Below, one piece after another: positions 1,238-62,643 of a DNA stretch of 64,000 bases (position 1 is its first letter; each line of letters starts with the position of its first letter). Location of the stretch: the sequence record MN850622.1. The stretch is one strand, 5' to 3'. A program made the translations under genes and the position numbers. The notes under the pieces were generated by a model. That model ran no database searches, was not told the DNA's origin, and was given only the letters and a program-made list of their open reading frames with translations. This DNA is from Escherichia phage mobillu.

Positions 1238-1294
1238 TAATTTAAGTAAGACCTGCAAAAACCATCGCATCAATTAACGTGAGATGCAAAAAAA

Positions 1295-2455: not shown

Positions 2456-2691
2456 TTTCTAGAAAAACTTTTAACCACCAACTTAATGAAGAGATTTTGA
2501 CTATGAAAATTAACAGCAACGAACAAATTCTTAAAAAGGCCCTTATGGGCCTGTTTGAAACTAAAGCGGCTAAAGTGATTAAAGGACCTGTTCAATTGGA
2601 ATACTACGCTGATGCATTTCTTCATAGTGTTCTTGGAAGTATCGATGCTGAAGCTTTACGTTATATCAACATTGTCAAGAAATTCAAATAA
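2452..2691 (+). CDS. hypothetical protein
   Basis: ATGA start/stop overlap with upstream gene; 79 aa; no recognisable motif. Confidence 0.45.
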   Translation: MISRKTFNHQLNEEILTMKINSNEQILKKALMGLFETKAAKVIKGPVQLEYYADAFLHSVLGSIDAEALRYINIVKKFK

Positions 2692-2714
2692 GCTTTACGA
2701 ATTGAGTATATAAT
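2692..2714 (+). promoter_or_regulatory. putative middle promoter for gene 42 (MotA box GCTTTA + TATAAT)
   Basis: aGCTTTAcgaattgagtaTATAAT, box-to--10 gap 11 nt. Confidence 0.35.
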
Positions 2715-2733
2715 AAATTGTATTGAGGTAAAC

Positions 2734-3450
2734 ATGGGAAAACATAACACAATGAAATATATCAAAGCCGCAGATTTTCAAACCGCATTTAAAGCAGTCA
2801 ATCGTGAAATTTTAGAAAACCCGGAATTCGTAACTGATTCTCGTATTGGACGTTGTAATGAAATTGGGTCTATGACAGTAGTTGTTGACACTCCATCATC
2901 ATTCAAAATGACCGACCCACGTATTAACCGCATCTCTTATGAATACGCCGAAGATTTCTGGAAGTTTATGATTTCTGGTGGTACCAACGCAGAAGAAGCG
3001 TTTAAGGCATATCCTAATGTCGCTAAATTTATTTCTAAACCAAAATCAGATGTTTTGCCGGCGAACTTCAACACTTTCTACGGTCCTCGCATTGCGGCCC
3101 AATTACCAGCTCTTCTAAAAGAACTTAAAGAGAAGCCTAACTCCCGAAGAGTTGTGTTCCAAATTCTAGAAAGTTCTGATCAGGCTTTGCTTGATTCAGA
3201 CGAAACGCTTGAATATCCATGTACTGACTCAGTGACTTATTATATTCGTGATGGTAAGCTTTATACCCACTGTCATATGCGTTCTCAGAACTGTGCTGTT
3301 GTTATGCAGTTGGATTTTTATCTCCAAGGAAAATTACTTCATTATATCGCTAACGAATGTGGTGTAGAAGTTGGTGATTATACTCATACCATGGTAAGTG
3401 CCCATGTGTTTGAACGTGATTTTGATTATGTTAAAGGATTCCTTGACTAA
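2734..3450 (+). CDS. 42: dCMP hydroxymethylase (thymidylate-synthase superfamily), gene 42 homolog
   Basis: GAGGT RBS; SRR and YPCTD catalytic-Cys motif, MRSQN motif, Asp at position +31 from catalytic Cys (equivalent to T4 gp42 Asp179 / TS Asn177); syntenic with T4 gene 42 next to uvsX. Confidence 0.75.
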   Translation: MGKHNTMKYIKAADFQTAFKAVNREILENPEFVTDSRIGRCNEIGSMTVVVDTPSSFKMTDPRINRISYEYAEDFWKFMISGGTNAEEAFKAYPNVAKFISKPKSDVLPANFNTFYGPRIAAQLPALLKELKEKPNSRRVVFQILESSDQALLDSDETLEYPCTDSVTYYIRDGKLYTHCHMRSQNCAVVMQLDFYLQGKLLHYIANECGVEVGDYTHTMVSAHVFERDFDYVKGFLD

Positions 3451-4349
3451 TGGCTATTTTCCGCGTACCAATCTTGAGTATGCGGTCTTATGAAACTGGA
3501 CAGTATGCTATCCTTAAGGATGGCAACTTCCAACTTCATTTGCACCGTGCTAATCCAGGTGATGTGATTACATATCCACGTAATGCATCTGATATTAAAG
3601 AATGCGAACGTCTTTTCCCAGAATTTAAGTTTGTTCCATTATGGTATAAAGATAACGCGTATAACACTCGTAAATATTTCTGGTCTGAAAATGAATTTGT
3701 GGTTGATTCATTAATTGCTTATTATGATTGTGATTTTCTAATCACAGATATCACCGGATATGACGGTGCTTTTGATGTAGAATTCAATTTCAATATCACT
3801 GCAGACCCTAATAAACCACGTTTTTATATTGACGAATTCTTAAAAACCGACATGTTGTCGGTTAATCGTTCACTTCAAACTACTGTGTTGAACGAACGTC
3901 AAAAAGAAGTGCTGGTTAACGCAGGTGCAGATGGTAATAAGATTATCGTAACGCAGAAAGTTATACGTCCTTCCATCATGCAGCGTCTTGTAGGTGATTT
4001 GGCTCCTATTCATCTAGATGGTATTTTTCATCCATTTCGAATTAGCGACCCGTGCTATCGTTTTGAACAAGTGGTTGAATGTGCAATTCAATTAGGCCAA
4101 CCGCTTTATATAACCGATCCAAATAATAGCTTCGACAGAAATAAGTATCCTGAAGAAGCGCTGATTCGAATTTTTAAACCAACTAAAACTGAGTACTATC
4201 AAATTCTTAAAGGACGTCCGAAAATTCAATATTTCGAAAATCCTGAAGAAGTATTCCATCCAGGTCTTGGTGAGTTCATCTACTTTAATGCTTTAATTTC
4301 TTCGCCGTATAATATACCTAAATATGAAGATGTCGTAATCGAGGAATAA
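3450..4349 (+). CDS. hypothetical protein in beta-gt syntenic slot (possible transferase)
   Basis: TAATG coupling to gene 42; 299 aa; no recognisable similarity to T4 beta-glucosyltransferase by eye. Confidence 0.5.
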   Translation: MAIFRVPILSMRSYETGQYAILKDGNFQLHLHRANPGDVITYPRNASDIKECERLFPEFKFVPLWYKDNAYNTRKYFWSENEFVVDSLIAYYDCDFLITDITGYDGAFDVEFNFNITADPNKPRFYIDEFLKTDMLSVNRSLQTTVLNERQKEVLVNAGADGNKIIVTQKVIRPSIMQRLVGDLAPIHLDGIFHPFRISDPCYRFEQVVECAIQLGQPLYITDPNNSFDRNKYPEEALIRIFKPTKTEYYQILKGRPKIQYFENPEEVFHPGLGEFIYFNALISSPYNIPKYEDVVIEE

Positions 4350-4350
4350 A

Positions 4351-4899
4351 ATGGCTAAAATTATTTTAGTAGATGGCCCAGATAATGCTGGTAAAACAAC
4401 TTTCATTAATGACATAATGGAAATTAGTGAAAGATATGTAAAGATTGATTTCCCTAAACGAACAGTTGATGGGCGTTTCGATGTTAAGTCTCGAAATGAA
4501 GTTGGCTGCTTCGAAACGATGTTGAATTATTTAGACCCTACTAAGATTTATCTGTTAGACCGTGGATATATTAGTAACTGGGTTTATGGACGTATTCGAC
4601 AAGATGCGGACTCGGTTCTTGACGTTTATGAACAGGATTATGTTCGTCTTTGCCAAAACCATGATGTGTTCACAATTATTTTAACACGTAACGAAATGAC
4701 TGAAAGTTTTGAAGACGACCTTATTACTTTGTCTTCATTCGGTTTTAATACAGTCATTTCACATTTTGAAGAGTTTGCAATTCATAACAAAATCCAAACG
4801 TATCAATTACTTAATCATGATGGTGCTAACAAAGTTATAGGATTTAATGCAAGCGAACGTAATTATTTGATTACAGAAATTATCAAATGGGCTCGTTAA
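4351..4899 (+). CDS. P-loop nucleotide/nucleoside kinase-like protein (TMPK/dNK-like)
   Basis: Walker A VDGPDNAGKTT near N-terminus; LDRGYISNWVYG resembles DR(Y/H) motif of thymidylate/deoxynucleoside kinases. Confidence 0.6.
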   Translation: MAKIILVDGPDNAGKTTFINDIMEISERYVKIDFPKRTVDGRFDVKSRNEVGCFETMLNYLDPTKIYLLDRGYISNWVYGRIRQDADSVLDVYEQDYVRLCQNHDVFTIILTRNEMTESFEDDLITLSSFGFNTVISHFEEFAIHNKIQTYQLLNHDGANKVIGFNASERNYLITEIIKWAR

Positions 4900-8792: not shown

Positions 8793-8977
8793 GCAAATTA
8801 ACTAAAGTTACTTTTATCGGTTGGTTTAAAAGCGGTGAGATGTTCACTAAAGATATCATGTTATCAGGTGATCGCGAAGAAATCGAGTGGGTTACGGTAC
8901 AACTTGCTGAAGTGAACAAAGCATTAGTTAAAGCATTTGTTAATGACGAGAAAGTTTTCGAAGCAGATTTTCGATAA
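8789..8977 (+). CDS. hypothetical small protein, translationally coupled to Arr-like gene (size/position compatible with dmd)
   Basis: ATGA overlap with upstream stop, GAGGAA upstream; 62 aa; T4 dmd is a ~60 aa gene in the same 41-61 interval. Confidence 0.4.
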   Translation: MSKLTKVTFIGWFKSGEMFTKDIMLSGDREEIEWVTVQLAEVNKALVKAFVNDEKVFEADFR

Positions 8978-8989
8978 TTTTAAATAGCT

Positions 8990-9789: not shown

Positions 9790-10083
9790 ATGAAAAAGTT
9801 ATCATTGGCAGCAATCTTACTTGCAGTATCATGTGCACCGGCTCCAGTTACGGCAGGTTATGATAAAGACCTCTGTGAGTGGTCAATGACTGCAAATCAA
9901 GAAGATGTTGAACAACAAATCTTCTCTGATATCATGAACATCACTAAACGAGACCGTCCTAATATGGTTAATAAAGTTGTTGAACAACTTAAGTCTGGCG
10001 GTATCATGCAGTACAACTATGTTTTGTATTGTGACCCTAATTTCGATAACAAAGATATCGTAACCGAAATCACAGGTGAATAA
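9790..10083 (+). CDS. sp: Spackle-like periplasmic protein (superinfection exclusion / lysozyme inhibitor)
   Basis: 97 aa with cleavable signal peptide; size and position (before 61.2-like, upstream of 61) as T4 sp. Confidence 0.5.
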   Translation: MKKLSLAAILLAVSCAPAPVTAGYDKDLCEWSMTANQEDVEQQIFSDIMNITKRDRPNMVNKVVEQLKSGGIMQYNYVLYCDPNFDNKDIVTEITGE

Positions 10084-10084
10084 T

Positions 10085-10735
10085 ATGATTTATTATATGC
10101 ACAAAAATGCGCCATTTAAATATGGTAAATTTCCTAATGCACAATGTTATAATATAACGCCGAATGAAAATAATAACGGATACCATCTCGGTGTAATTTT
10201 TGTAATTGTTAAAGATAACGAAATAGTTGCCTGGGCAGATTTTAAAGGTACAACATATGATGTTAATCCTGTGCCTTTCACATATTACAATATAATGGAT
10301 TTGGCATATGATTATAATTGGTTTAATCATGACACGTTGGCTCATATTGAAGGTGTAGGATTTGACATCTCTTATTCTAGCTATTCATTATGTCCTATGA
10401 GCCGAGCTCACGGTAAAGATGTATCATATCTTTCAATTCGGAAACGTGTAAACTTCAAACGTAGTACAGAGTATGTTGGTGGACTCTTTGTTAAAGATAA
10501 TAAAATAACCCGTATTAGTTATCCTCTAAGTGTAGGCCAAAAAGATGTTGATGTTGATTTGGACTTAACTGAAAATAACATTAATCGTATTGCTTCTGTA
10601 TATTTTGATATCGATGAAAAAATTGTAGTGTGTGGATACGAATTACCACCTGAAGAAAAGGCCGAAGCAATTGAAGTCGAATTAGAAATTTCTGTTGATG
10701 ACCAAATATTTAATGCATTTATGAATCGAGGTTAA
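10085..10735 (+). CDS. hypothetical protein (61.2-position)
   Basis: ATG 1 nt after upstream stop; 216 aa. Confidence 0.5.
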   Translation: MIYYMHKNAPFKYGKFPNAQCYNITPNENNNGYHLGVIFVIVKDNEIVAWADFKGTTYDVNPVPFTYYNIMDLAYDYNWFNHDTLAHIEGVGFDISYSSYSLCPMSRAHGKDVSYLSIRKRVNFKRSTEYVGGLFVKDNKITRISYPLSVGQKDVDVDLDLTENNINRIASVYFDIDEKIVVCGYELPPEEKAEAIEVELEISVDDQIFNAFMNRG

Positions 10736-13287: not shown

Positions 13288-13460
13288 TGGCTCGTTTAAA
13301 TAAACGTCAGCTTAAGAAAGCTCATAAGAAACGTATTGACCAACTATTTAAAAATGATAACAGTGAGCTTATTTGTAAGCTCCTGTCTAATCAGCTTCAG
13401 CATGTTAGTCAATTATCAGACCATCTACATATGGTTGATTGGGTTGCAAATGAAACTTGA
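13287..13460 (+). CDS. hypothetical small basic protein
   Basis: 57 aa ORF (below ORF-track cut-off) starting in TAATG overlap with gene 56 stop; MARLNKRQLKKAHKKR. Confidence 0.35.
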   Translation: MARLNKRQLKKAHKKRIDQLFKNDNSELICKLLSNQLQHVSQLSDHLHMVDWVANET

Positions 13461-13674
13461 TTTTTATGCATGGCAAAAAGCCGGGAGACCGGCTAATAAA
13501 GCATTCGGCTCTGATGGATATAATACTAGACTCCACTGGAAATTTAATACTCCAGATGATTATTCTCCGGTAATAATTAACGGTGATGTTGTTATATTAG
13601 CTAAATTCGGATATTTTATTGTACCGAAGAAATTCATTATAAATACACCTGTAACTAAACAACAAAGGAGTTAA
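13450..13674 (+). CDS. hypothetical protein
   Basis: 74 aa from internal ATG of track ORF 13336..13674; alternative longer start 13336 conflicts with the 57-aa ORF. Confidence 0.35.
   Translation: MKLDFYAWQKAGRPANKAFGSDGYNTRLHWKFNTPDDYSPVIINGDVVILAKFGYFIVPKKFIINTPVTKQQRS
13638..13645 (+). promoter_or_regulatory. late promoter (TATAAATA) for soc
   Basis: Exact TATAAATA about 30 nt upstream of soc ATG. Confidence 0.6.
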
Positions 13675-20018: not shown

Positions 20019-20513
20019 ATGAATATCAATACTACGGCTACTTACATCCTGAAAGACGAAAAACAAATCAACTGGTACGGTGCTTCAGTGCGAGCTTATG
20101 AAAAGTTTTGTGAAATTTTAGGTGCCACTCAAGGTAATAGTTTCACTATTGTTAACTTCATCAAACAAGCTGAAGGCCCTTGGTTATTCTTAGAAATTAA
20201 AAATTCATACGGTACAATTTCTACTGCCGCCCTTCCAAGCACCGACTTTGAACTGTTGATTGAAGAAGTAGAACCTGTTAAAGACATCTGTATTGATATG
20301 GATATCGCTTGTATGTACGGTACTCTGATTAAGCCTATTGAGCCTACTGATTTGTTGTGTAAATATGTTTCAATTCGACGACCGTTCGCTGGTCCAGTAA
20401 ATGGCTGGGTGTCTGACCAGTGGATTGAAGAAGGTGTTGAACTTCTGAACGTTGTTCATGCAGGTGATTTTAGTGTAGTTCCACGTAGTGCTGTGGTTAA
20501 TATCCTTAATTAA
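20019..20513 (+). CDS. hypothetical protein, paralog family member 1
   Basis: 164 aa; C-terminal GWVSDQWIEEGVELLNVVHAGDFSVVP shared with two downstream paralogs. Confidence 0.55.
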   Translation: MNINTTATYILKDEKQINWYGASVRAYEKFCEILGATQGNSFTIVNFIKQAEGPWLFLEIKNSYGTISTAALPSTDFELLIEEVEPVKDICIDMDIACMYGTLIKPIEPTDLLCKYVSIRRPFAGPVNGWVSDQWIEEGVELLNVVHAGDFSVVPRSAVVNILN

Positions 20514-37261: not shown

Positions 37262-37813
37262 TTACTTAAAGATATTTATAATTCGTTTAACAAGTGATTT
37301 GCTTTCAAGGTCAGGGAATTTAGGGAATTCGCCGCCAAGATGTTCATGTTTTTCTAAAAGGGCAAAGAATTTTTTGAGCTCTTTAAATTTTCGTTTTTCT
37401 TCTCTATTAGCAACCTCTGCATCAATAAGAGAACTTAAAACACTGAATAATTTATAGAGTTCATGAATTTTCTTATCACGTTGAACTACCCGCTTATACG
37501 CTTCATCTTCCTTCCACCCGTCGTCAGTCCAAAGGTCAAATTCACCTGGTTCTTCTGTAGTGACATTTTGAAGAGCACCTGGAGTGTCAATAACAATTTT
37601 TTGCTTATCATAAGTCCATACTGTTTTTCCGCGATGGTCTTCAACATATACCCATTCTTGCTCGCGTTCATCAAATATAACAGCATAGCCTTCTTTAGGG
37701 TCTAAAGGTTTTTTTGGTGTCGAATGAGCCGGAAATCCTACGCCTTTTAATGGTTTATAATTTTCTTCTTTGTAAAATTCTTTAGTGTCAAAATAATAGT
37801 GATAGAGTTTCAT
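37262..37813 (-). CDS. 38: gp38 tail-fibre assembly chaperone (Tfa-like)
   Basis: 183 aa; MKLYHYYFDTKEFYKEENYKP, EDHRGKTVW Tfa signature; downstream of gene 37. Confidence 0.85.
   Translation of the reverse strand: MKLYHYYFDTKEFYKEENYKPLKGVGFPAHSTPKKPLDPKEGYAVIFDEREQEWVYVEDHRGKTVWTYDKQKIVIDTPGALQNVTTEEPGEFDLWTDDGWKEDEAYKRVVQRDKKIHELYKLFSVLSSLIDAEVANREEKRKFKELKKFFALLEKHEHLGGEFPKFPDLESKSLVKRIINIFK
37273..37280 (-). promoter_or_regulatory. late promoter (TATAAATA) for holin t
   Basis: Reverse-complement TATAAATA, then AAGGAGG and ATG of t. Confidence 0.6.
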
Positions 37814-37820
37814 ATTATAA

Positions 37821-37838
37821 AAAGGGACCGAAGTCCCT
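37821..37838 (-). terminator. UUCG hairpin between genes 37 and 38 (terminator and split-RBS element)
   Basis: On - strand: TAAGGAG-aagggaCTTCGgtccctt-tttataat-ATG(38). Confidence 0.55.
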
Positions 37839-37843
37839 TCTCC

Positions 37844-40800
37844 TTATGCTAAACGAACGATATAGTTAAAAGCAACGTTTTTAACTGTGTTTTCTGTATT
37901 TCCTGTGGCATTTACAGTTATTGTATGTCCATGGGAACCAATTGCAACAGTATGAGAATGAGCACCAATACCTACCGAATGGGTATGAGCACCAATACCC
38001 ACAGTATGAGCATGGTTACCAGTAGCGCTAGTAGTTCCTGACCAACTATGAGTGTGGGCACCGTCTGAAGAAGTTTTGGCTATATTCGACCCTGCAGTAG
38101 CACCGTTCACGGTTCCAGTGAATTTAGCGTTGGCGTTTGCACCTACACTATTATATCCGTCATAGAATATGTTATTGGGTATGCCGGCTTGTATCTGAGG
38201 ACCTGAACGCGCGTGTTGGTGCGCACCAGCGGAACTAGTATTACCACTCACTGTATGGTTATGGTTACCAGTGGTATTACTGGTCTTAGTACCATAATCA
38301 AAGCTTGAAGTCGTTTTGCTACCGTAATCAAAACTAGAAGTGGTCTTAGTACCCAAATCTGTGCTTGATGCACTTGCACTATGGCTATGTGACTTAACAC
38401 CGTCTGCTTCTGTACTCAATACAGCACGCCCAGATGGTTTACCCTTGATAGTTTGACCACGCATATCAGGCAGAGCGCCGGAAGGATACACCGCAGCTAA
38501 CTTAGGATACAAGTCAGCATCAAATGTTTGACCTTCCATTATGGCATAACCTTCAGGAGGTGTATCAGTAGGCCAAGGAATCGGAGCACCAATAGGATAA
38601 CTTGAGACAATATCCGTCTTAAGGTTATTTATTGTGGTATTCAAGTTAGCAAAATTACCAGTGCCGCCAGTGATGTTACCATCAGTACCGAATTGAGCAT
38701 TACCGACTTTAAGAGGTTTAGCTATATCAACCGTATCAGAGTTTAATGCAATACCATGGGAGTAGGTGTAACTGTGCATACGAACGATGTTACCGCCATC
38801 GCCAATACCTAAATACCATTTCGGAACATCTGCTTTACGTCCTTGAATGAAGTTAGAAGACTCTTGTGTTGGAGCATTTATTCTAATAGCATCTGATGCC
38901 ATATTTACTGTTATTCGTTGACCAGCCGTAGTTCCAGCCGCTTCTACTTTAAATCTACCGCCGCCGATATCTACATCATGATCCATGGAAACTTTACCAT
39001 TACTTAATGTAATATAGAATGGACGTAAATTAGAAATACCACCTGATTCACCAGCATTCTGCGGAGTTGGAATAATATAAAACTTATCTTCAGAACGACG
39101 GAAAATAGCACCATATTCAGCATCGTAAATACGGAAAGCATCAGCAGTCCCGCCAATTTTAACCTGTCCGGTAATTGAGGCACCACCTTGAACAAACAAT
39201 CCATTATTCATTGTAACGTTGCCAACTAGAGTGCTTAATCCGTTAACTCTAAGACTTCCGTCGGTTATTAAGCTTCCTCTAGCATTAACCTGTCCATTGA
39301 ACTGAGTTACAACAGGGCCTGTAGTTTCAGAACCGGTCGGAGCTACGCGTTGAGAATAGAAATAATAACCTTGGCCATCAGAAACCTCAAATACGGTTTC
39401 TCGAGCTTTATCACCAGTAGCATTAAATGAGTTACCCCATGCTTTCACGGTCACATAACTTTTGTTCTGACCTGCACGAGTACCGCCTTCCCACATTATT
39501 TGCTTAGTGCCATCAATACCTGAAGCTGCTTTAAAAACTAGAGAAGCATTAGTTCCATCACCATTAAAATATAATCCGTTATTAAGTTTTAACGTTTGAA
39601 CAGAAGCGATGGTACCATCAGCACGCAAATTTAGCGAATTTGAACCAGTTTTAATATCTAAAATGCCGGGCTCAACAAGAAGTCCATCGCCCATACTAAC
39701 GGACATACGACCTGTACCACGGAAATAGTGATACATCTTAGCATTGCTGCTATATCCGATATGAGTCTGTCCATCGCCGTTATTATTACCATCAACATCG
39801 GTACGCGCAGTAAACATTGCTTGGTTATTATTTGGGAAATCCCAAGTAGAACCTGAATCTCGGCTATAACCAACCATCAATTTCTTGGTGCTGTTAATAC
39901 CATTGTTCAAAATGGTAGCCGAAGAAATACCGTTGGCCATTAAATCGATAACGCCGTCGCGAACCCATTTAATACCTGTATCGTTATCACCAATGGCAAT
40001 ACCTTTACCAAACGAAACCAATGGATAACGTCCTTGGTCACCAACATCAGCAAGACCTATACCTATCGAATTAGCAACAGACATACGCCCATCTGTGGTA
40101 TAAGACCATTGATAAACTTCGGCATTACGTCCCGTCCAATACGAAATATTCTGTGGTTTACCTGAACGAGCATCAGCAACTTCATGGAAAATAGCAGAAG
40201 AAACATGTCCGCGGAATTTACGAAGGTAGTTTATACCATTAGTATCCAAATCCGTTTCGGTTGGAGTATACTGCCAAGTCGGTAATGAAACTAAATCATA
40301 TGCAGTATCAATATTAGTGTCCCAAGATTTAGTGCTCACATTGATGTTTTTGGTAATAACTTTAGGACCAATTAAAGAACCAGCTTTAGTTTCAATATTA
40401 CTTTGAGTAACTAAATATCCATTAGATACTAATAAACTTCCGGAATCAACTTGAAAATTACCGTTTCGATTAAAAGTCCAGTATTTTGAAGTCCCGGTTT
40501 CATCAATATAATGGAATTTAAAACTACCTTCGTTTACTAATGTACCAGCAGAAAAAGTTCCATCTTTATAGCGTTGTTTAATCAGTGGATGGTATTCTGA
40601 AACAGAAGTAGTTGAACTTAAATCTGTAAAGATAGGGGCTTTATTCGAATGTTGGTTAGCCCAAGCGCCATTTCCAGTGGTTTTAGGTAAAAATTCAATG
40701 TATTTTCCTGCATAAACAAACTGATTTCCATTGAGATTATACGTGCCGTTTTGTAAATAATCACCAGTTTGAGTTACATTACCGTTAATATCCCCGCCCT

Positions 40801-42833: not shown

Positions 42834-45800
42834 TTATTCAATCCACTCGAATTTAACAGATTTATTCACAGGGTCTGGAATAATGCGGACATTACCAATC
42901 CTTAAGAAATCCCTTATTGTCAAGTTTCCGATTGTTGCATTATCAGAAGGTAAAGCACCAATATCAGAAGGTTGAGGAGGGTTTCCACCATCAAATACCT
43001 GAACAAAACTTGACCAAGAATTTTTAGTTTTCTGCCATGTACGAGTCCAACGGGTTGTACGTGCTTCTGGAGTTGTTGGATAAGTAATCCAATCTTGGTA
43101 AAGTGAATCAAGTGTGTTACCAAACTGAGTCAGTGTACCAGGAGATTTAACTTCTTCGCCACGTTCTAAGTATGGAAGCCCAGTCACTTCATTAGTTTTT
43201 TCAACCATTTTAAAATAACCTGGGAACTGGTTATAAGTGGCTGAATCGTTAATATCAATTGACCAGAATCCTACATTATCAGATGTTGGCGCACGGGTAT
43301 ATAAATCGGATGTTTTAGTACCCTGAGAACGAATTCTCGAGTTAACAGTCAAACCGCCAGAATTTATAGTAGCACCTTTGGCAATGATTAAGCTTTCACC
43401 AATCGTAACTTGTCCGGATTGATTATTAATTGATAATGGACGTAATCCATTAAATCCACCGGCCTGATCACCAGATGCAGTAAGCATAAAATATGTGCTG
43501 CCGCCATCATTGCGAATAAAGAATCCGTAATCACCACTAATTGCTCTAAATGCATTTGCAGACTTGCTAATGAATTCGCCATTGGCTGTAACTGAACGAC
43601 CAAATGTTGCAACGCCATTCGCATTTAACGTGCCTGAAGCGTTAACATTTATTGGCATCACAGTACCATTAATGCTAAACGTTATATTCCCAGCTTTATT
43701 ACGTTGAGAATAAAAGTGATTAGATGTTTCATCACCAACTTCAAATACAGTAGAACGTGTTGTATCTGAACCACCACCACCAAATTCATTTCCCCAAACT
43801 CTGATAGTCATCGTCTGTGCTGGGTTAGTTCCAGTCTGAGGTCCTTTCTCAAAAATCAGACGAGTTGCCGTTCCAGTATTAGAAATAGTTAATGTACTAT
43901 TTGCCGAAACTGAACCACCAAACGTAGCAGTACTAGTTGATACAAGAGGGGCACTCAGATTCGTTTGTTGGGTTAAGGTTAGTGAACCATTAACCGTCTG
44001 TGCAATGTCCCTACGAATGAACTGAGATGAATCTAGGCCATCTAATAAATTTGCGTCAGCAGCTTTTGCTTTTAATGGCAAATAGTTAGCAAGTACACGG
44101 TTTAATTCATATGGAGAAATAGCATAACTATTTTTTTCATATGATTCTAAAGGTTGTGTTGAACCAACTGTATCATTACCAACGAATGTAATTGAACCAG
44201 ATGAAGTTTTAACAAAACCTCTTATTGCAGTAGTAGCAGCCCATGTTGGTTCATTCTGGACAATCCATTTTAAATTCTTAGGAGATACAGCAGTATTAGC
44301 AGAAGTTCCTGTTATAGTTTCAGCCTGAGTAGCAACCTTAATTACGCCTTCAGACGTTTCAGTGGACTTAGTCCCTAAAAGCTTTTTAGGAGTAATAAGA
44401 ACATCATCTAAAGTTCCTGCATTAGATTCTGCCTGAGTCGCTACGCGAAGTGTACCACGTTGTGTTTCATTTGCTTTAGAAATATCAAGAGTATAATGGT
44501 TCCACAAGGTTCCTTCTTCAATAAGTCCAGAATCAGAATTAACACTGGTACGGTCAGAAGAATCAAAATGAGTTTTAATTTTCAGTGGAGTCGAGATACG
44601 AGTATCATCAGTTCCAGTATCAAATTCGACTTGCGTAGCAAGTTCGGCTATGCCGGATAATCCTTCCGTAGCTTTCCTATCATTTAACGTCTTAGGCGTT
44701 ACTGCACGTGTATAATCAGTCCCAGCATTAGTTTCTGCTTGCGTAGCAATTTCAATTAAACCAATACGTCCATCAGTAGAAGTTTTCTTATGTAGTGTTT
44801 CAGGAGTTACTACAGCGTGAGAATAACCTGCTTGTGATTGACCAGCAATTACTTCACTATCAACAGCTAAAATTACTGCACCTTGTTGAGCATAAGTTGC
44901 TTTATATTGGTCAAGGGCTTTAGGAGAAATAGTTAAATTATTTATGGTTTTATTATAAACGTTAGTGCCTGCAGCACCACGAGTTTCAGCAGGAGTAGCA
45001 GAAGTAGTTGATACATATTTAACTATACCAGATAGTGTTTCAGAGCCCTGACGTGCCTGCAATTTCTTAGGTGTAATAATCGTTGTGTCATCAAGACCAG
45101 CATCGGTTTCGGTCTGAGTAGCAATTTCGGCAAGACCACGACGAGTTTCAGTTGCTGTACGCTCATTTAGTTTTTTAGGCGTAACAATAGTATCATCTAC
45201 AAATGTTGCTGTGGAATTCTGGTTAACTTGTGCTGTTGTGGCAATTTTAGCGATACCACGTCGAGCTTCAGTTGCTGTACGATTTGCCAATGTTTCCGGA
45301 GTAATAGCAACTTCTTTAGCTGGAGTATTCTCTAAATCAACATTTGCTTGCGCTTGAGTAGCAAGAGCAATAACACCTAAACGAGCTCGTGTAGCATCAG
45401 TTCCAGCATCAACACGTTCTACAGTAGGGACGTTTTGTTGAACAACCCAATAACGTGTACCAGCAACGGTGTCTTCGATATACGCTAATTCTAATACAGG
45501 AACATATGAAGTAGTGCCATTGAATTCTAGTTCAGTAACAGAGACCCATTGAGCATCAGGTGGATATTCAGAACGTTTAGGGAACTGAAGCAATGCAACA
45601 GAAGAAGCAATTGTATCACCTTCGGCAGCTTTAATTTTTACTGTTTGGCCTTTACGCATGTAGTTCATTGAAATTTTAACAGTGTCACCACTCAAAATTC
45701 CGGAAGGCAGCGTAAGATTAATAGTTCCGGCTGTAGCGTTATTTGTGCCAAAAATAAGAACTTCTTCATTTGGACGAATATTTGAATCCGCACGGATAAT

Positions 45801-50108: not shown

Positions 50109-50495
50109 ATGGAAATCGGAAAATCTTATATCATCAACCCTTTATTTAAAGACGACTTTGCTAACGAGTGCCGTTGCAATACAATAATGCTAAATTTAAT
50201 AGAGAAGCACGGACCTAGTTTTGTTGTAGATGAAATGGAAAGTGATGATTGTGCTGGTGAATGTGTGGTACGTGTAACTATGGAAGATGGCACTGAATAC
50301 ATGGCGAGTGGCCCACTTGAGACGTATTTTGAGATTTACTCTGAAGAATTCAAATACTTTACTGAGGTAGATTTAGTAAAGCCTCAACCTACTAACGAAG
50401 GTATAACTTTAGGTGTAACAAAAATCCATTGTATCGTAGATGAAACCAACGTCGACGAAATCATCGAACTTTTGCAAAAAACTTTTAAAAAGTAG
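50109..50495 (+). CDS. hypothetical protein
   Basis: 128 aa after early promoter. Confidence 0.5.
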   Translation: MEIGKSYIINPLFKDDFANECRCNTIMLNLIEKHGPSFVVDEMESDDCAGECVVRVTMEDGTEYMASGPLETYFEIYSEEFKYFTEVDLVKPQPTNEGITLGVTKIHCIVDETNVDEIIELLQKTFKK

Positions 50496-50524
50496 TTTAT
50501 AATAAGATAGGGTTATGTTATAGT
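50495..50524 (+). promoter_or_regulatory. T4-type early promoter with inverted repeat
   Basis: GTTTAT + 18 + TATAGT; gataggg / ccctatc. Confidence 0.5.
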
Positions 50525-50557
50525 AGCCCTATCAAATCAAAAGTGAAGGAGAATAAA

Positions 50558-50806
50558 ATGAGATTGCAACGCCAGAGCATCAAAGATTCTGAAGTTAGAG
50601 GTAAATGGTACTTCAACATCGTTGGTAAAGACGCTGAACTCCTTGAACAAGCTGAAGAAGCTTTACGTGAAATGGGTTGGAATGAAGAATGTGATGGATG
50701 TCCACTCTACGAAGATGGTGAAAGCGCAGGATTCTGGATTCACCACTCTGATGTTGAATCGTTTAAAGCTGATTGGAAAGTTGTTAAGAAAAATCTGAGG
50801 AAATAA
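50558..50806 (+). CDS. hypothetical protein
   Basis: 82 aa from ATG with GAAGGAG RBS; track GTG start lies in promoter region. Confidence 0.5.
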   Translation: MRLQRQSIKDSEVRGKWYFNIVGKDAELLEQAEEALREMGWNEECDGCPLYEDGESAGFWIHHSDVESFKADWKVVKKNLRK

Positions 50807-50808
50807 AA

Positions 50809-51396
50809 ATGCTTAAATTAGTATTCGCATGCGCACCATCTAAAACAGTTGATGATAAATTGGAATATGCTTTTGGATTAGGTGATGGACTTCCATGGAA
50901 GCATATCAAACAAGATATGAGTAACTTTGTTGCTCGCACTAAAAACACTGTAATGGTTATGGGTGCTAAGACTTTTGCATCATTACCTCGTCTACTACCA
51001 GATCGTACTCATGTGGTTGTCACTGATATGGCCAGAAAACTGCCTAGGACTAAAACCAACGAACTTGCACGGTTCTATATCACCCAAGCAGAATTTATTG
51101 CCTTGGTAATGGGTAGTGAAATTAACCTGTTTAGCCCTTCAACAGACGTATCGTTTAAACTTTCTACTGAACATGTTGATGTATCTGTTATCGGCGGTCC
51201 TGCCTTATTAAAACAAGCACTGCCTTATGCCGATGAAATTGTGATGACTAAAATCATTAAGAAATGTCGTGTTAATTCAGACGTTCAACTTGATAAAGAT
51301 TTCATCCAAGATATTATGCTTCAACGTTCTATGGTAGAATCTCATTACTACAGAATCGATGAACTCACCGAAATTACTGAGAGCGTATATAAATGA
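50809..51396 (+). CDS. frd: dihydrofolate reductase
   Basis: 195 aa; LGDGLPW, VMGAKTF, VIGGPALL motifs as T4 DHFR. Confidence 0.85.
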   Translation: MLKLVFACAPSKTVDDKLEYAFGLGDGLPWKHIKQDMSNFVARTKNTVMVMGAKTFASLPRLLPDRTHVVVTDMARKLPRTKTNELARFYITQAEFIALVMGSEINLFSPSTDVSFKLSTEHVDVSVIGGPALLKQALPYADEIVMTKIIKKCRVNSDVQLDKDFIQDIMLQRSMVESHYYRIDELTEITESVYK

Positions 51397-52253
51397 AACA
51401 ATACCAATACCTGATTAATGATATCCTAGAAAATGGCTACGAAACAGACGACCGTACAGGCACAGGAACAATTGCCCTGTTCGGAACTAAATTACGTTGG
51501 GACCTGACTAAAGGATTCCCTGCAGTAACAACTAAGAAATTAGCATGGAAAGCTTGTATTGCCGAACTACTGTGGTTCATGTCTGGTTCTACCAACGTTA
51601 ATGATTTGCGTATTCGTACTCATGGTAGTCTTATTCAAGGTAAAACTATTTGGGACGACAACTATGAAAATCAGGCAAAAGACCTTGGATATCATAGCGG
51701 CGAACTTGGTCCTATTTACGGTAAGCAATGGCGTGATTTTGGCGGTGTAGACCAATTGGTCAAAACTATCGACCGCATTAAAGCTCTTCCTAATGATCGT
51801 CGTCAAATAGTTTCTGCATGGAACCCAGCCGAAATTGACCAAATGGCTCTTCCTCCTTGTCATATGTTCTATCAATTTAATGTGCGTAATGGGCATCTTG
51901 ATTTACAATGGTATCAACGCAGTGTAGATGTTTTCTTGGGCCTGCCGTTCAACATTGCCTCGTACGCTGCCTTGACGCATATTGTAGCGAAGATGTGTAA
52001 CCTTATCCCAGGTGATTTAGTGTTCTCAGGCGGCAACACGCATATCTACAGCAATCATGTAGAACAATGCAAAGAAGTTCTTCGTCGTGAACCTAAAGAG
52101 TTATGTTCTCTTGAAATTAATTGGCCTAGTAATTTTGAGAATTGGCCTACAAAAATCCAAATGGACTGGGTTACCGGAACGATGACACATTCTGATTTCG
52201 TTCTTAAAAATTACGAATCACATCCAGCTATAAAAGCTAAAATGGCGGTATAA
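51393..52253 (+). CDS. td: thymidylate synthase
   Basis: 286 aa; DRTGTGT, PPCHMFYQF, YQRSVDVFLGLPFNIASYA; uninterrupted (no intron). Confidence 0.9.
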   Translation: MKQYQYLINDILENGYETDDRTGTGTIALFGTKLRWDLTKGFPAVTTKKLAWKACIAELLWFMSGSTNVNDLRIRTHGSLIQGKTIWDDNYENQAKDLGYHSGELGPIYGKQWRDFGGVDQLVKTIDRIKALPNDRRQIVSAWNPAEIDQMALPPCHMFYQFNVRNGHLDLQWYQRSVDVFLGLPFNIASYAALTHIVAKMCNLIPGDLVFSGGNTHIYSNHVEQCKEVLRREPKELCSLEINWPSNFENWPTKIQMDWVTGTMTHSDFVLKNYESHPAIKAKMAV

Positions 52254-52254
52254 A

Positions 52255-52509
52255 ATGATTTTACGTTTTATTAATTCATATGGCACCACAATTTTTGAAA
52301 TGAAAAATCCAAGTGAACTGGATATCCCTTCACCAAATAGTGAAATCACAATTAAAGGTGAACGATTCATTTGTTATTCACATGAACGAATTTATGAATA
52401 TCGTGAATTTTGTGGTGGTTACGGTATGGAAAAAGAACCATTGGTTTATTTCGATATCACGGTCTTGACACCTAAAGAATACGAAGAAATTATTGCTGAG
52501 GATAATTAA
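52255..52509 (+). CDS. hypothetical protein
   Basis: 84 aa. Confidence 0.45.
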   Translation: MILRFINSYGTTIFEMKNPSELDIPSPNSEITIKGERFICYSHERIYEYREFCGGYGMEKEPLVYFDITVLTPKEYEEIIAEDN

Positions 52510-52533
52510 CGCTTCAGTTTAAAAGTGTATAAT
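52510..52533 (+). promoter_or_regulatory. putative middle promoter for nrdA
   Basis: cGCTTCA + 11 nt + TATAAT. Confidence 0.35.
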
Positions 52534-52596
52534 AAATTAACGGGATAAATACTATCCCGTTTGGAGTAATGTCTATCAACCTATACTGAGGAATAT

Positions 52597-54852
52597 ATGC
52601 AAGTAACTAAGAGCAGTGGTGTATCACAAAATTTTGATGCACAGAAAATTATTCAAGTCTTAACTTGGCAATGTGAAGGAACACAAATTGATCCATATGA
52701 ATTGTACGAAGAAATTAAGACCCATCTTGTCGACGGGATGAGCACCAAAGATATCCAGAAGATTTGTATTAAAGTTGCAGCTAACTCGATTTCTGTCGAA
52801 GAACCTGATTATCAGTATGTCGCCGCCAAAGGGCTAATGTTTGCACTTCGTAAAGATGTATATGGGCAGTTTGAACCGCCTGCTTTTATCGACCATATTT
52901 CTTATTGTGTTAATGAAGGCAAATATGACCCTGAGCTGTTGTCTCAATATTCAGCAGAAGAAATCATTTATCTCGATTCACAGATTAAACATGAACGAGA
53001 CTTTGACCTGACTTATGCTGGTGCTATGCAGCTTAAAGAAAAATATCTAGTTAAAGATAAAACAACTGGGAAGATTTATGAAACTCCCCAGTTTGCTATC
53101 ATGGCTATTGGCATGGCCTTACACCAAGACGAAACTCATGACCGTTTGAAACATATTATTCGTTTTTATGATGCCGTTTCTACTCATCAAGTTTCATTGC
53201 CAACCCCAATTATGGCAGGTGCTCGTACTCCAACTCGCCAGTTCTCTAGTTGTGTAGTTATTGAAGCCGGTGATTCGTTAAAATCTATTAACAAAACTTC
53301 AGCATCAATTATTGAATATATTTCTAAACGAGCTGGTATCGGTATCAACGTTGGTATGCTTCGTGCAGAAGGTTCTAAGATCGGTATGGGTGAAGTTCGA
53401 CATACGGGTGTTATTCCATTCTGGAAACATTTCCAAACTGCAGTAAAATCTTGTTCTCAAGGTGGTATTCGTGGTGGTGCTGCTACAGCGTATTATCCGA
53501 TGTGGCACTTAGAAGTAGAGAACCTATTAGTTCTGAAAAATAACAAAGGCGTGGATGAAAACCGTATTCGACATATGGACTACGGAATTCAGATTAATGA
53601 CCTCATGATGGAACGCCTTGGTAAAAATGATTATATTACTTTATTTAGCCCTCACGAAATGTCAGGCGAACTATATTACTCGTTCTTTGAAGATCAAGAT
53701 AAATTCCGTGAGCTTTATGAGAAAGCTGAAAAAGACCCAACAATTAGAAAGAAAAGAATCAAAGCACTAGAACTCTTTGAATTGTTCATGACTGAACGTT
53801 CTGGTACTGCTCGAATTTATCCACAGTTTGTTGATAACACGAATAACTACACTCCATTTATTCGTGAAAAAGCTCCAATTCGTCAAAGTAACTTATGTTG
53901 TGAAATCGCTATTCCAACTAATGATGTGAATGGTCCTGATGCTGAAATTGGTTTATGCACATTATCTGCTTTTGTATTAGATAAATTTGATTGGCAAGAC
54001 CAAGATAAAATTAATGAACTTGCTGAAGTACAAGTACGTGCACTTGATAACCTGCTAGACTATCAAGATTATCCGGTTCCAGAAGCTTTAAAAGCTAAAA
54101 AGCGTCGTAATCTTGGTGTTGGTGTTACGAACTATGCTGCATGGTTAGCTTCTAACTTTGCTTCATATGAAGACGCTAACGATTTGACTCATGAATTGTT
54201 TGAGAGATTGCAATATGGCCTTATCAAAGCATCAATCAAACTCGCCAAAGAAAAAGGATGTTGCGAGTATTATTCAGACACTAAATGGTCTAGAGGCGAA
54301 TTACCTATCGACTGGTACAATAAAAAGATTGACCAAATCGCAGCCCCGAACTACGTCTGTGACTGGGAAGAACTTCGAGCTAAACTCAAAGAACATGGAA
54401 TTCGTAACTCAACGTTGTCTGCACTCATGCCTTGTGAGTCAAGCAGTCAAGTATCAAACTCTACAAACGGGATTGAGCCACCACGTGGTCCAGTAAGTAT
54501 TAAAGAATCTAAAGAAGGCAACTTCCGACAGGTTGTTCCTAATATCGAACATAACATGAGTCTTTACGACTACGCGTGGAAACTTGCTAAGAAAGGTAAT
54601 AAACCTTATTTGACCCAAGTTGCTATCATGTTGAAATGGGTGTGCCAATCTGCTTCTGCTAATACTTACTATGACCCTGCAGTATTTGAGAAAGGTAAAG
54701 TGCCAATGTCAGTAATGCTTGACGATCTGCTTTACTTCTGGTACTTTGGCGGAAAAAACCTCTACTATCATAACACTCGTGATGGGTCTGGTACAGACGA
54801 CTATGAATTAGAAACACCTAAAGCAGAAGATTGTTCTGCTTGTAAGCTTTAA
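52597..54852 (+). CDS. nrdA: ribonucleotide reductase class Ia large subunit
   Basis: 751 aa; ATP-cone N-terminus, NLCCEI active-site region, C-terminal CSACKL-like tail. Confidence 0.9.
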   Translation: MQVTKSSGVSQNFDAQKIIQVLTWQCEGTQIDPYELYEEIKTHLVDGMSTKDIQKICIKVAANSISVEEPDYQYVAAKGLMFALRKDVYGQFEPPAFIDHISYCVNEGKYDPELLSQYSAEEIIYLDSQIKHERDFDLTYAGAMQLKEKYLVKDKTTGKIYETPQFAIMAIGMALHQDETHDRLKHIIRFYDAVSTHQVSLPTPIMAGARTPTRQFSSCVVIEAGDSLKSINKTSASIIEYISKRAGIGINVGMLRAEGSKIGMGEVRHTGVIPFWKHFQTAVKSCSQGGIRGGAATAYYPMWHLEVENLLVLKNNKGVDENRIRHMDYGIQINDLMMERLGKNDYITLFSPHEMSGELYYSFFEDQDKFRELYEKAEKDPTIRKKRIKALELFELFMTERSGTARIYPQFVDNTNNYTPFIREKAPIRQSNLCCEIAIPTNDVNGPDAEIGLCTLSAFVLDKFDWQDQDKINELAEVQVRALDNLLDYQDYPVPEALKAKKRRNLGVGVTNYAAWLASNFASYEDANDLTHELFERLQYGLIKASIKLAKEKGCCEYYSDTKWSRGELPIDWYNKKIDQIAAPNYVCDWEELRAKLKEHGIRNSTLSALMPCESSSQVSNSTNGIEPPRGPVSIKESKEGNFRQVVPNIEHNMSLYDYAWKLAKKGNKPYLTQVAIMLKWVCQSASANTYYDPAVFEKGKVPMSVMLDDLLYFWYFGGKNLYYHNTRDGSGTDDYELETPKAEDCSACKL

Positions 54853-54906
54853 GACTTTTTATTATAATTTACTCATGGATGAGTTAATAACTAAGTGAGA
54901 AATATA

Positions 54907-56082
54907 ATGAGTACAGTTTTTAACACACATCAAGTCGATGTTTTGAATGAACCGATGTTCTTTGGTTCTGGTCTTGGCCTCGCACGGTATGATATTCAGC
55001 GTCATAAAGTTTTTGAAGAACTTATTGAAAAGCAATTGTCGTTTTTCTGGCGCCCAGAAGAGGTAAACTTGATGTTGGATTCGGCCCAGTTTAATAAGCT
55101 TCCACAGTTCCAACAGGACATCTTTACCAACAACCTTAAGTATCAATCATTATTAGATTCTATCCAAGGTAGAGCACCATCTGCGGTACTTATGTCATTG
55201 CTTTCAGACCCTTCATTAGATACATGGGTTGCTACATGGACTTTCAGTGAAACTATTCACTCTCGTTCATATACTCATATTATGCGAAATCTTTATACAG
55301 ATCCATCGAAGGTGTTTGATGAGATTGTATTAGATGAAGCTATTATGAAGCGTGCCGAATCTATCGGACGATATTATGATGATGTTCTAGTCAAGACTCG
55401 TCATTGGGAAAATGCTAAGGAAGTTTATGAGTGTTCAATAGGCTCATGCCAGCAGAATGATATTGAGATGTACGAAGAAATAATGTTTAACGCCAAGCGT
55501 GATTTAATGAAGTCTCTTTATCTCTGTTTGCATGTTATCAACGCCTTAGAAGCTATTCGTTTTTACGTATCATTTGCATGTACTTTCAACTTCCATAAAA
55601 ATATGGAAATTATGGAAGGTAATGCAAAGATTATGAAGTTCATTGCTCGTGACGAACAACTCCATCTCAAGGGTACTCAGTACATTATCCGTCAACTTCA
55701 ATCTGGTACTGATGGCGATGAGTGGGTTCAAATTGCTAAAGAATGTGAACAAGAAGCAGTTGACATTTTTATGGAAGTAAATAGTCAAGAGAAGGAATGG
55801 GCTGCACACCTCTTTAAAGACGGTACATGTCCAGGTATCAATACGCAGAGTATGTGTGCTTTTGTTGATTACTTGACTGTGTCTCGTATGAAACAGTGCG
55901 GTTTGCCATGTCCAATTACTGATGCTCCGACCAAGCATCCGTATCCTTGGATTCGTGAATATCTGAACTCTGATTTAGTTCAAGCAGCTCCTCAGGAAGT
56001 TGAAATCAGTTCTTATCTTGTCGCACAAATTGATAACGATGTAGACCAAAATGTAATCAATTCATACAAAAAATATTTCTAA
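54907..56082 (+). CDS. nrdB: ribonucleotide reductase class Ia small subunit
   Basis: 391 aa from ATG 54907; di-iron ligand region (EXXH motifs), uninterrupted. Confidence 0.9.
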   Translation: MSTVFNTHQVDVLNEPMFFGSGLGLARYDIQRHKVFEELIEKQLSFFWRPEEVNLMLDSAQFNKLPQFQQDIFTNNLKYQSLLDSIQGRAPSAVLMSLLSDPSLDTWVATWTFSETIHSRSYTHIMRNLYTDPSKVFDEIVLDEAIMKRAESIGRYYDDVLVKTRHWENAKEVYECSIGSCQQNDIEMYEEIMFNAKRDLMKSLYLCLHVINALEAIRFYVSFACTFNFHKNMEIMEGNAKIMKFIARDEQLHLKGTQYIIRQLQSGTDGDEWVQIAKECEQEAVDIFMEVNSQEKEWAAHLFKDGTCPGINTQSMCAFVDYLTVSRMKQCGLPCPITDAPTKHPYPWIREYLNSDLVQAAPQEVEISSYLVAQIDNDVDQNVINSYKKYF

Positions 56083-56086
56083 GGAC

Positions 56087-56100
56087 GGGACTTCGGTCCC
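56087..56100 (+). terminator. UUCG hairpin after nrdB (weak terminator)
   Basis: gggaCTTCGgtccc, poor T-run. Confidence 0.4.
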
Positions 56101-56108
56101 ACTTTATT

Positions 56109-56519
56109 ATGAAAGATATCGCCGCCGAATATTCCTTTATTAAATATACAGAATTGGAGCTATTAGAAGATGCAACAATTAAAACAGTTGATGTCCCTAA
56201 TAAGAAAAATGTCATATACGCTATTGCTATAGATGACGAACTTGTGTATATTGGTAAAACCAAGAATTTAAAGAAACGCATTAACTATTATCGAACAGCC
56301 ATAAATCGAAAAGACCAGACTTCAGATTCAAGAAAATCACTTATGATTTTGGATGCCTTAATGCAAGGCAAAAAGGTTGAATTCTGGGCCCGCCAATGTT
56401 TTGACCTTTCAGTCACCAACGAACTTGGTTCAATGACCATCGCAACAATGGACCTTGAAGAACCGCTTTTTATCAAAAAGTTCAACCCGCCTTGGAATAT
56501 CCAACATAAGAAAAAGTAG
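56109..56519 (+). CDS. denA: DenA-like GIY-YIG endonuclease II
   Basis: 136 aa; VIYAIAIDDELVYIGKTKNLKKRINYYR GIY-YIG-like; position after nrdB as T4 denA. Confidence 0.65.
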   Translation: MKDIAAEYSFIKYTELELLEDATIKTVDVPNKKNVIYAIAIDDELVYIGKTKNLKKRINYYRTAINRKDQTSDSRKSLMILDALMQGKKVEFWARQCFDLSVTNELGSMTIATMDLEEPLFIKKFNPPWNIQHKKK

Positions 56520-56548
56520 TTTACATACCACAAGGATTGTGGTACAAT
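56519..56548 (+). promoter_or_regulatory. T4-type early promoter upstream of rnlA
   Basis: GTTTAC + 18 + TACAAT; ccacaa / ttgtgg repeat. Confidence 0.5.
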
Positions 56549-56566
56549 TTAAAAAAAACTAACTGA

Positions 56567-57700
<1,134 letters not shown>

Positions 57701-61530: not shown

Positions 61531-61650
61531 TGAGAGCTATCTCGTTACTATCGAGAATGCTCATAAATCTGAGCACTACCAACTTAGCCTGTCTAATCCG
61601 GTTAAAGGTATTGTTGAATCAGAATCTGTTTATATCTTCTAAGGATTGTT

Positions 61651-62643
61651 ATGTTACCTGTCGTCGGAAAACTTATTTCTCCAAAAGAACTGGCTGAGAT
61701 TATTCCTTTGTCGGAAGCTTACGCATCACAAGTGGCTTCTCATCGCGAACAAGTTAATTCGATTATGAACGGTGAAGACCCACGCAAACTTATTGTTGTA
61801 GGTCCTTGTTCAATTCATGACCCTATTGCTGCTGTTGAATACGGCAAACGTCTGGCTGAACTTCAAACTCGTCTTCCTAATGTTCTGTTAGTGATGCGCG
61901 TTTATTTTGAAAAGCCTCGAACTACCGTAGGTTGGAAAGGTCTTGTAAATGATCCATATCTTGACGGAAGTTTTGATATGAACCACGGTCTTATAGTTGC
62001 ACGAACATTGTGTCGTAAACTTCTACGTATGGGACTTCCATTAGCAACTGAAGTATTAGACCCATTCACGATTAAGTATCTTTCTGGTATTTTCTCATGG
62101 GTTGCTATTGGCGCCCGTACGACTGAAAGTCAGACACATCGTGAAATTGCTTCAGGTCTACCGATGTGCGTAGGCTTCAAGAACGCAACCAATGGTTCTA
62201 TTAAAGTAGCTACAGACGCGATGTATAGTGCCGCCAGGCCTCATCGGTATATGGGTATGGACGTCGATGGTACTGTAGGCATTGTTGAAGCTGAAGGTAA
62301 TCAGAATACGCATATCGTATTGCGTGGCGGGACCAACGGCCCGAACTATCATTCTTCTGATATTCAAGAAGCTTCTAACAAAGCAAGTGCAGTAGGTCTG
62401 AATCATTATGTAATGGTTGACTGTAGCCATGCAAACGCTGCTGGGCATTATAGCAATCAAATTGGTATTGGTAAAAATTTAGCAGCTAATGATTTGGTCA
62501 AAGGAATTATGATAGAATCATTCCTACATGAAGGAAATCAAAAAATTTCTAATAATATGTCCTATGGCGTTTCCGTTACCGATGCGTGCATCAGTTGGGA
62601 ACAAACTAAAGAGCTGTTAACTTATATTAATAAGGTTCAATAA
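61651..62643 (+). CDS. 3-deoxy-D-arabino-heptulosonate 7-phosphate (DAHP) synthase, class I (AroG-like)
   Basis: 330 aa; VGPCSIHDP, RVYFEKPRTTVGWKGLVNDP, GARTTESQTHRE, ESFLHEGNQ, TDACISWE closely track E. coli AroG; lacks about 20 N-terminal residues. Confidence 0.9.
   Translation: MLPVVGKLISPKELAEIIPLSEAYASQVASHREQVNSIMNGEDPRKLIVVGPCSIHDPIAAVEYGKRLAELQTRLPNVLLVMRVYFEKPRTTVGWKGLVNDPYLDGSFDMNHGLIVARTLCRKLLRMGLPLATEVLDPFTIKYLSGIFSWVAIGARTTESQTHREIASGLPMCVGFKNATNGSIKVATDAMYSAARPHRYMGMDVDGTVGIVEAEGNQNTHIVLRGGTNGPNYHSSDIQEASNKASAVGLNHYVMVDCSHANAAGHYSNQIGIGKNLAANDLVKGIMIESFLHEGNQKISNNMSYGVSVTDACISWEQTKELLTYINKVQ

Follow-up and report, generated by a model that had tools for sequence, protein, structure and literature searches.

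The td and nrdB genes of Escherichia phage mobillu (MN850622.1) are uninterrupted, and both positions at which T4 carries a group I intron in these genes are empty. The analysis covered a window of 64,000 nucleotides, the whole stretch of DNA under study. With very high confidence, the region is identified as the unoccupied form of the nucleotide-metabolism cluster frd-td-nrdA.2-nrdA-nrdB-denA, belonging to a T-even phage of RB69 type (Mosigvirus). This state is ordinary. Intron-free td and nrdB genes are already known for the RB69-type group, and the absence of introns and homing endonuclease genes from this group has been published since 2006-2010. The result confirms that phage mobillu belongs to this group and is of little importance alone.

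Kinship of the cluster and continuity of its genes

The stretch from td to nrdB (51393-56082, 4.7 kb) was matched in 870 phage records. Among the best matches, vB_EcoM-172859UKE1 showed 97.7% identity over the stretch in one uninterrupted piece, and RB69 (Mosigvirus) aligned over the same positions with 96.6% identity, likewise in one uninterrupted piece. The best matches to the stretch are RB69-type (Mosigvirus) coliphages at ~96-98% identity. The window as a whole is colinear with RB69 throughout except at 13290-13637, 37284-40727, 43164-43916, and 61540-62639, and none of these four departing segments contains a nuclease gene.

All genes of the neighborhood lie on the + strand, in the order gp32, frd.2, frd.1, frd, td, nrdA.2, nrdA, nrdB, denA, and rnlA (Table 1). 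They are tightly packed: the end of frd overlaps the start of td by 4 nt, and the intergenic spacers in the td-to-denA region measure only 1, 87, 54, and 26 nt. The nrdA.2 homologue is the sole ORF in the interval between td and nrdA. For T4 nrdA.1, no significant match was found in the window by tblastn, and the gene is absent. A 19-aa tblastn match (E 0.005) was seen between T4 NrdA.1 and the start of frd.2 (50124-50180), and it does not concern a nuclease. The gap between nrdA and nrdB is so short that mobE and nrdB.1 must be absent, and no match to MobE or NrdB.1 was obtained anywhere in the window.

Table 1. Positions of the genes and sites discussed, in window coordinates (a slash marks the point between two nucleotides)
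Feature	Position	Strand	Basis
frd, dihydrofolate reductase	50809..51396	+	Pfam DHFR_1, E 3.6e-21; synteny with RB69
td, thymidylate synthase, 286 aa, single continuous ORF	51393..52253	+	Pfam Thymidylat_synt PF00303
Empty td intron homing site	51915..51961	+	mapped against T4, G2469, and F27
nrdA.2 homologue, 84 aa, DUF5496	52255..52509	+	Pfam DUF5496, E 5.8e-14; RB69 annotation nrdA.2
nrdA, ribonucleotide reductase large subunit, 751 aa, continuous	52597..54852	+	Pfam ATP-cone, Ribonuc_red_lgN, and Ribonuc_red_lgC (1-523/523)
nrdA-nrdB spacer, 54 nt	54853..54906	+	sequence read directly
nrdB, ribonucleotide reductase small subunit, 391 aa, continuous	54907..56082	+	Pfam Ribonuc_red_sm PF00268
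Empty nrdB intron insertion point	55579/55580	+	mapped against T4, G2469, and JK45
denA, endonuclease II, GIY-YIG nuclease	56109..56519	+	Pfam GIY-YIG; PDB 2WSH

Continuity of td was assessed against the spliced T4 gene. The T4 exons (549 + 312 nt) were joined from the T4 record (NC_000866), and the product was aligned globally with the product from the window. The two proteins are colinear, 286 versus 286 aa, with 235 identities (82%), and the residues FLG-LPF that span the T4 exon junction are identical in the window protein. Td covered the whole of Pfam Thymidylat_synt PF00303 (1-266/266, E 2.5e-97, 325.7 bits), a full-length match to the family. The insertion point maps between 51941 and 51942, in phase 0 after the GGC codon of Gly183, and nothing is inserted there according to blastn comparison with T4, G2469, and F27.

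The same procedure was applied to nrdB, with T4 exons of 664 and 503 nt and removal of a 598-nt intron. The window protein is colinear with spliced T4 NrdB (391 versus 388 aa, 338/391 identical, 86%), and the FA-C-TF motif spanning the T4 junction is identical. The two proteins differ in length only by a 3-aa indel, placed in a variable loop that precedes the junction by ~45 residues. NrdB matched positions 9-271 of the 281 in PF00268 with E 2.4e-37 and 129.3 bits, placing it in that family. The insertion point is in phase 1: it splits the Cys codon of FACTF after its first T and before GT, and blastn found nothing inserted. Alignments by blastn with T4 and three intron-carrying close relatives are interrupted at the td and nrdB points alike. 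The sequence-only reading had described both genes as continuous and had proposed T4 alignment as a check for a missing exon segment. Both products align over their full length with those of the spliced T4 genes, and no segment is missing. The view of nrdB as a single ORF therefore stands, with a correction to its start. The ORF list begins the gene at GTG 54895, which sits within the Shine-Dalgarno-like sequence AGTGAGAAAT; for this reason, translation almost certainly begins instead at ATG 54907, which gives the N-terminus MSTVFNT... shared with T4 and RB69. For annotation, td and nrdB can be called as single CDSs, nrdB from this ATG.

The large-subunit gene between them was also inspected. 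The nrdA of Aeromonas phage Aeh1 is reportedly a precedent for an intein or inserted endonuclease gene. An intein or inserted endonuclease gene in the nrdA of phage mobillu was excluded by the full profile coverage (Table 1) and by alignment of the DNA with T4 nrdA as one piece, at 78.5% identity.

Searches for introns and homing endonucleases

A search of the window with Rfam at the gathering threshold gave no hits. The same threshold also returned none on T4 and G2469, which hold four genuine introns, and the negative result at this threshold therefore carries no weight. The gathering threshold misses T-even introns with endonuclease ORFs, so that a clean scan there is no proof of absence. 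It was replaced by a search with the Rfam covariance models in E-value mode, in which T4 and G2469 served as positive controls. In this mode, both introns were recovered by their 3' ribozyme cores: td and nrdB scored 40.3 and 35.7 bits for T4, and 36.2 and 33.9 bits for G2469. With the mode validated in this way, Intron_gpI (RF00028) gave no hits in 50500-57000 at E<=10 and none across the full window at E<=1.

The remaining signals were attributed to chance. Within the region, Rfam gave faint hits to mir-1, snoRNAs, and a lncRNA (E 4.7-9.1), and elsewhere a Y_RNA hit at 20168-20261 (E 0.25); all belong to eukaryotic families and lie far below threshold. When the four introns were compared with the window by blastn (word size 7), only matches of 12-43 nt appeared (best E 0.004), scattered over unrelated genes. 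Thus neither a frame-interrupting insertion nor a covariance-model ribozyme core, the two marks of a group I intron, is present in td or nrdB.

Homing endonuclease genes were searched for by phmmer and tblastn, with I-TevI, I-TevIII (T4 proteins and the full-length intron ORFs of G2469), and MobE as queries against the six frames of the whole window. The best E-value was 0.36. Because phmmer with I-TevI failed to recover DenA, this search is insensitive to distant GIY-YIG proteins. Domain scans with Pfam or PHROGs were performed on 39 ORFs, comprising the whole region, all ORFs in the segments divergent from RB69, and the ORFs annotated as "hypothetical" in RB69. No GIY-YIG or HNH domain was found among these 39 except in DenA. 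About 54 further ORFs of >=60 aa were cleared solely by synteny with RB69, as orthologues of named RB69/T4 genes. RB69 itself has been published as lacking homing endonuclease genes and group I introns (PMC2993671, Table 5; PMC1524935). In the 2010 survey of T4-related genomes, it is listed with "None" in each homing endonuclease gene class, against 15 for T4 (PMC2993671, Table 5). At 61540-62639, the window has 1.1 kb that RB69 lacks; a free-standing homing endonuclease gene was considered for this segment and rejected, as it encodes DAHP synthase.

Endonuclease II (DenA) nicks and degrades host cytosine DNA. The denA product of phage mobillu scored 28.1 bits against Pfam GIY-YIG, where the cut-off is 22.6, and matched T4 endonuclease II (PDB 2WSH) over residues 1-136, its full length, with E 1.4e-67. 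On these similarities, it is assigned as the orthologue of T4 endonuclease II and not as a homing enzyme or mobile element. The earlier statements that td and nrdB are free of introns and homing-endonuclease insertions, and that the only GIY-YIG-like protein is the denA-like gene, are borne out, and neither kind of element occurs anywhere from td through nrdA to nrdB. The junctions are empty, the validated Rfam mode and the I-Tev and MobE searches were negative, and DenA is the sole such protein detected in the 39 scanned ORFs, the rest being judged by RB69 synteny.

Intron-bearing relatives and the history of the empty sites

Introns do occur at these positions in close relatives. The Mosigvirus phages vB_EcoM_G2469, vB_Eco_F27, AV110, and FL31, as well as the RB69-like phage JK45, are intron-plus and ~96-97% identical to the cluster in the window. 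JK45 is RB69-like, yet filed under Tequatrovirus in its own record. In G2469 and F27, the equivalent of 51941/51942 is occupied by a 1017-nt td intron. Its ORF encodes a 245-aa I-TevI-like protein with 216/245 residues identical to T4 I-TevI, and this Mosigvirus intron is ~90% identical to the T4 td intron. In the td flank, the intron-plus relatives show A at -4 and T at -1, the latter always. In G2469 and JK45, the equivalent of 55579/55580 is occupied by a 1091-nt nrdB intron, which encodes a full-length I-TevIII-like ORF of 269 aa and is 98-99% identical to the intron of T4. On both sides of this insertion point, the nrdB flanks of the two phages contain a run of T4-type polymorphisms, the mark that co-conversion leaves when an intron homes in from a Tequatrovirus donor.

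In the phage collection, the td intron was matched in 260 records and the nrdB intron in 129, compared with 870 for the region; the intron-free form is therefore the common, majority state. The window holds the unoccupied alleles of a locus that is polymorphic for introns among close relatives.

With this arrangement, td and nrdB are translated straight from continuous mRNA, and splicing is unneeded. The sites that in T4 are taken by the td intron with I-TevI, by mobE, and by the nrdB intron with I-TevIII stand empty. The two empty intron sites are probably still potential targets for intron homing on co-infection with an intron-carrying phage. The susceptibility is suggested by the conserved CAACG motif at td and by the introns residing at both points in G2469, F27, and JK45. 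CAACG is the cleavage motif of I-TevI; its C and G are critical, and beyond these bases the enzyme tolerates sequence variation (PMC5009752). In the window, the motif is located at 51915-51919, 23 nt upstream of the td insertion point, which is the T4 spacing.

One alternative is that the td site is a resistant (immune) allele, in which silent differences prevent I-TevI-type enzymes from invading or an inserted intron from splicing. Relative to the T4 site, 8 of the 47 positions differ, among them -1, where C replaces T. A group I intron requires U at -1 for the U-G pair at its 5' splice site, and all intron-plus relatives have T at this position. Homing proceeds by double-strand-break repair, however, and copies donor sequence from the cut at -23 to the insertion point, so that the base at -1 would be exchanged as the intron is acquired. 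F27 and G2469 hold the intron despite sharing most of the Mosigvirus-specific differences on both sides. In addition, the critical C and G of CAACG and the spacing are conserved, and I-TevI tolerates sequence change (PMC5009752). We consider resistance of the td site unlikely.

A second alternative is precise loss from a once intron-bearing lineage, in which a reverse-transcribed or spliced copy, or an intron-minus phage, could for instance have been the recombination partner. The presence of introns in phages ~96% identical to the window would fit such a history, and the distinct Mosigvirus td intron, at ~90% identity to that of T4, suggests residence in the group for some time. The flanks in the window argue against it. 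At td, phage mobillu differs from RB69 at 2 positions within +/-60 nt, and at nrdB the two are identical over 60 nt on each side. These flanks are RB69-like and not T4-like, and the donor-type marks (A at -4 and T at -1 in td, T4-like polymorphisms in nrdB) are absent, so there is no sign of a past intron and its subsequent loss. As the intron-less form is also the majority state, precise loss appears very improbable. The idea that the region hides an intron that is degenerate or lacks an ORF, or else an unrecognized small mobile nuclease, can be dismissed: ORF-less td or nrdB intron remnants do occur in some phages (partial-coverage matches, e.g., HP3 and CE1), but here both proteins align colinearly with their T4 counterparts and neither gain nor lose residues near the junctions, the spacers are minimal, no intron match was obtained in E-value mode or by blastn, and the end-to-end alignments effectively refute the idea.

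The reading of the locus as unoccupied leaves room for a further, speculative proposal, which we hold to be doubtful. The td and nrdB alleles may be naive, still cleavable sites in a genus with two spreading introns that differ in history. The td intron would be a resident lineage, ~90% identical to that of T4, whereas the nrdB intron, with 98-99% identity and T4-like co-converted flanks, would be a recent arrival from Tequatrovirus. It may also be that silent changes at td (C at -1 and seven others) reduce invasion. Either way, the phage could serve as a naturally intron-minus partner in measurements of intron drive from one phage genus to another.

Comparison with RB69, T4, and intron-bearing phages

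The cluster of RB69 (AY303349 / NC_004928) has the identical gene order and, like the window, contains no introns, no mobE, and no nrdA.1. The td genes are of the same length, and NrdB is 390 aa in RB69 versus 391 aa in the window, a difference of one codon. Nucleotide divergence between the two phages is ~3%; the DAHP synthase gene is present in the window only, and the tail-fiber tips differ.

T4 (NC_000866) has orthologous td, nrdA, and nrdB genes, whose order and strand match those in the window. Its td intron of ~1.0 kb, which encodes I-TevI, and its 598-nt nrdB intron with a defective I-TevIII are both absent from the window. T4 also has the free-standing mobE, an HNH homing endonuclease gene, together with nrdB.1 between nrdA and nrdB, as well as nrdA.1, all of which are missing here. 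The earlier description of the region as unlike T4 holds insofar as the T4 introns are indeed lacking, but this is nothing peculiar to phage mobillu, since it is the published state of RB69 and that of the majority of T4-like phages. DenA resembles T4 endonuclease II (PDB 2WSH) over its full length, including the GIY-YIG catalytic domain, with no notable difference.

The intron-plus relatives carry the td intron, the nrdB intron, or both, whereas the window carries neither. With intron-bearing relatives so nearly identical, the locus is a handy natural example of presence/absence polymorphism of a selfish element, although this too is well known.

Intron content of close relatives and its detection

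Intron content varied among three relatives that are ~96% identical to the window. Phage F27 carried only the td intron, JK45 only the nrdB intron, and G2469 both. The nrdB intron of these relatives showed 98-99% identity to the T4 nrdB intron, and the polymorphisms in the adjoining exon sequence were T4-like. Their td intron belonged to a separate lineage, with ~90% identity to its T4 equivalent. The suitability of the Rfam group I intron model RF00028 for such elements was judged from searches on T4 and G2469. In these searches the classic introns of T4, in td and nrdB, scored 34-40 bits, where the gathering score of the model is 50 bits, and neither was reported at that score. ORF-bearing introns of T-even phages are thus missed by Rfam when it is run with default settings.

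A hypervariable segment in nrdB

A short hypervariable segment was located at window positions 55380-55500, corresponding to NrdB residues ~171-195, ~100-200 nt upstream of the nrdB intron insertion point; the rest of nrdB is highly conserved. Three alleles of the segment were distinguished, one found in the window and RB69 (an intron-less phage), a second in F27, G2469, and JK45, and a third in T4. Pairwise, they agree at only ~25-40 of 60 nt. At the protein level, this loop varies between alleles in sequence and, by 3 amino acids, in length.

Gene content relative to RB69 and T4

The gene block at window positions 162-4899 (+ strand) is RB69-specific and matches RB69ORF045c-052c. Genes that it includes are listed together with the other features in the table.

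Coordinates and assignments of features in the window
Feature	Position	Strand	Remark
Kinase-like protein	162-851	+	RB69-specific block
Phosphoheptose-isomerase-like protein	836-1237	+	RB69-specific block
Peptidase U32-like protein	1295-2455	+	RB69-specific block
Second, partial thymidylate-synthase-like or dCMP-hydroxymethylase-like protein	2734-3450	+	RB69-specific block
299-aa ORF	3450-4349	+	Counterpart is two separate RB69 ORFs (046c and 047c)
Thymidylate-kinase-like protein	4351-4899	+	RB69-specific block
Gene 61.2 homologue	10076-10735	+	Pfam AdfA (anti-DarT factor A), E 1.5e-119
DUF7422 protein	13336-13674		Encoded by the 348-bp segment differing from RB69
Topoisomerase II large subunit, single ORF, 605 aa	23410-25227	+	Also a single ORF in RB69 ('60plus39')
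Class I DAHP synthase gene, 330 aa	61651-62643	+	Pfam DAHP_synth_1, E 1.8e-75

In the early region, the gene 61.2 homologue is an anti-defence gene. RB69 has ~215 bp with gene 61.4, a segment that the window lacks (positions 8970-8978), and between gene 56 and soc a stretch of 348 bp (13290-13637) differs from RB69. Compared with RB69, the DAHP synthase gene is an insertion of 1.1 kb, situated between cd.2 and cd. The gene is at least 95% identical in ~140 records of Mosigvirus-like phages, which label it aroF or DAHP synthase, and is an already known auxiliary gene of the shikimate pathway, here in a lytic coliphage.

In T4, the locus of the topoisomerase II large subunit also carries mobA and a translational bypass in gene 60. 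In contrast to the single ORF of the window, the T4 subunit is divided by an insertion into gp39 and gp60, according to the annotation of the RB69 record.
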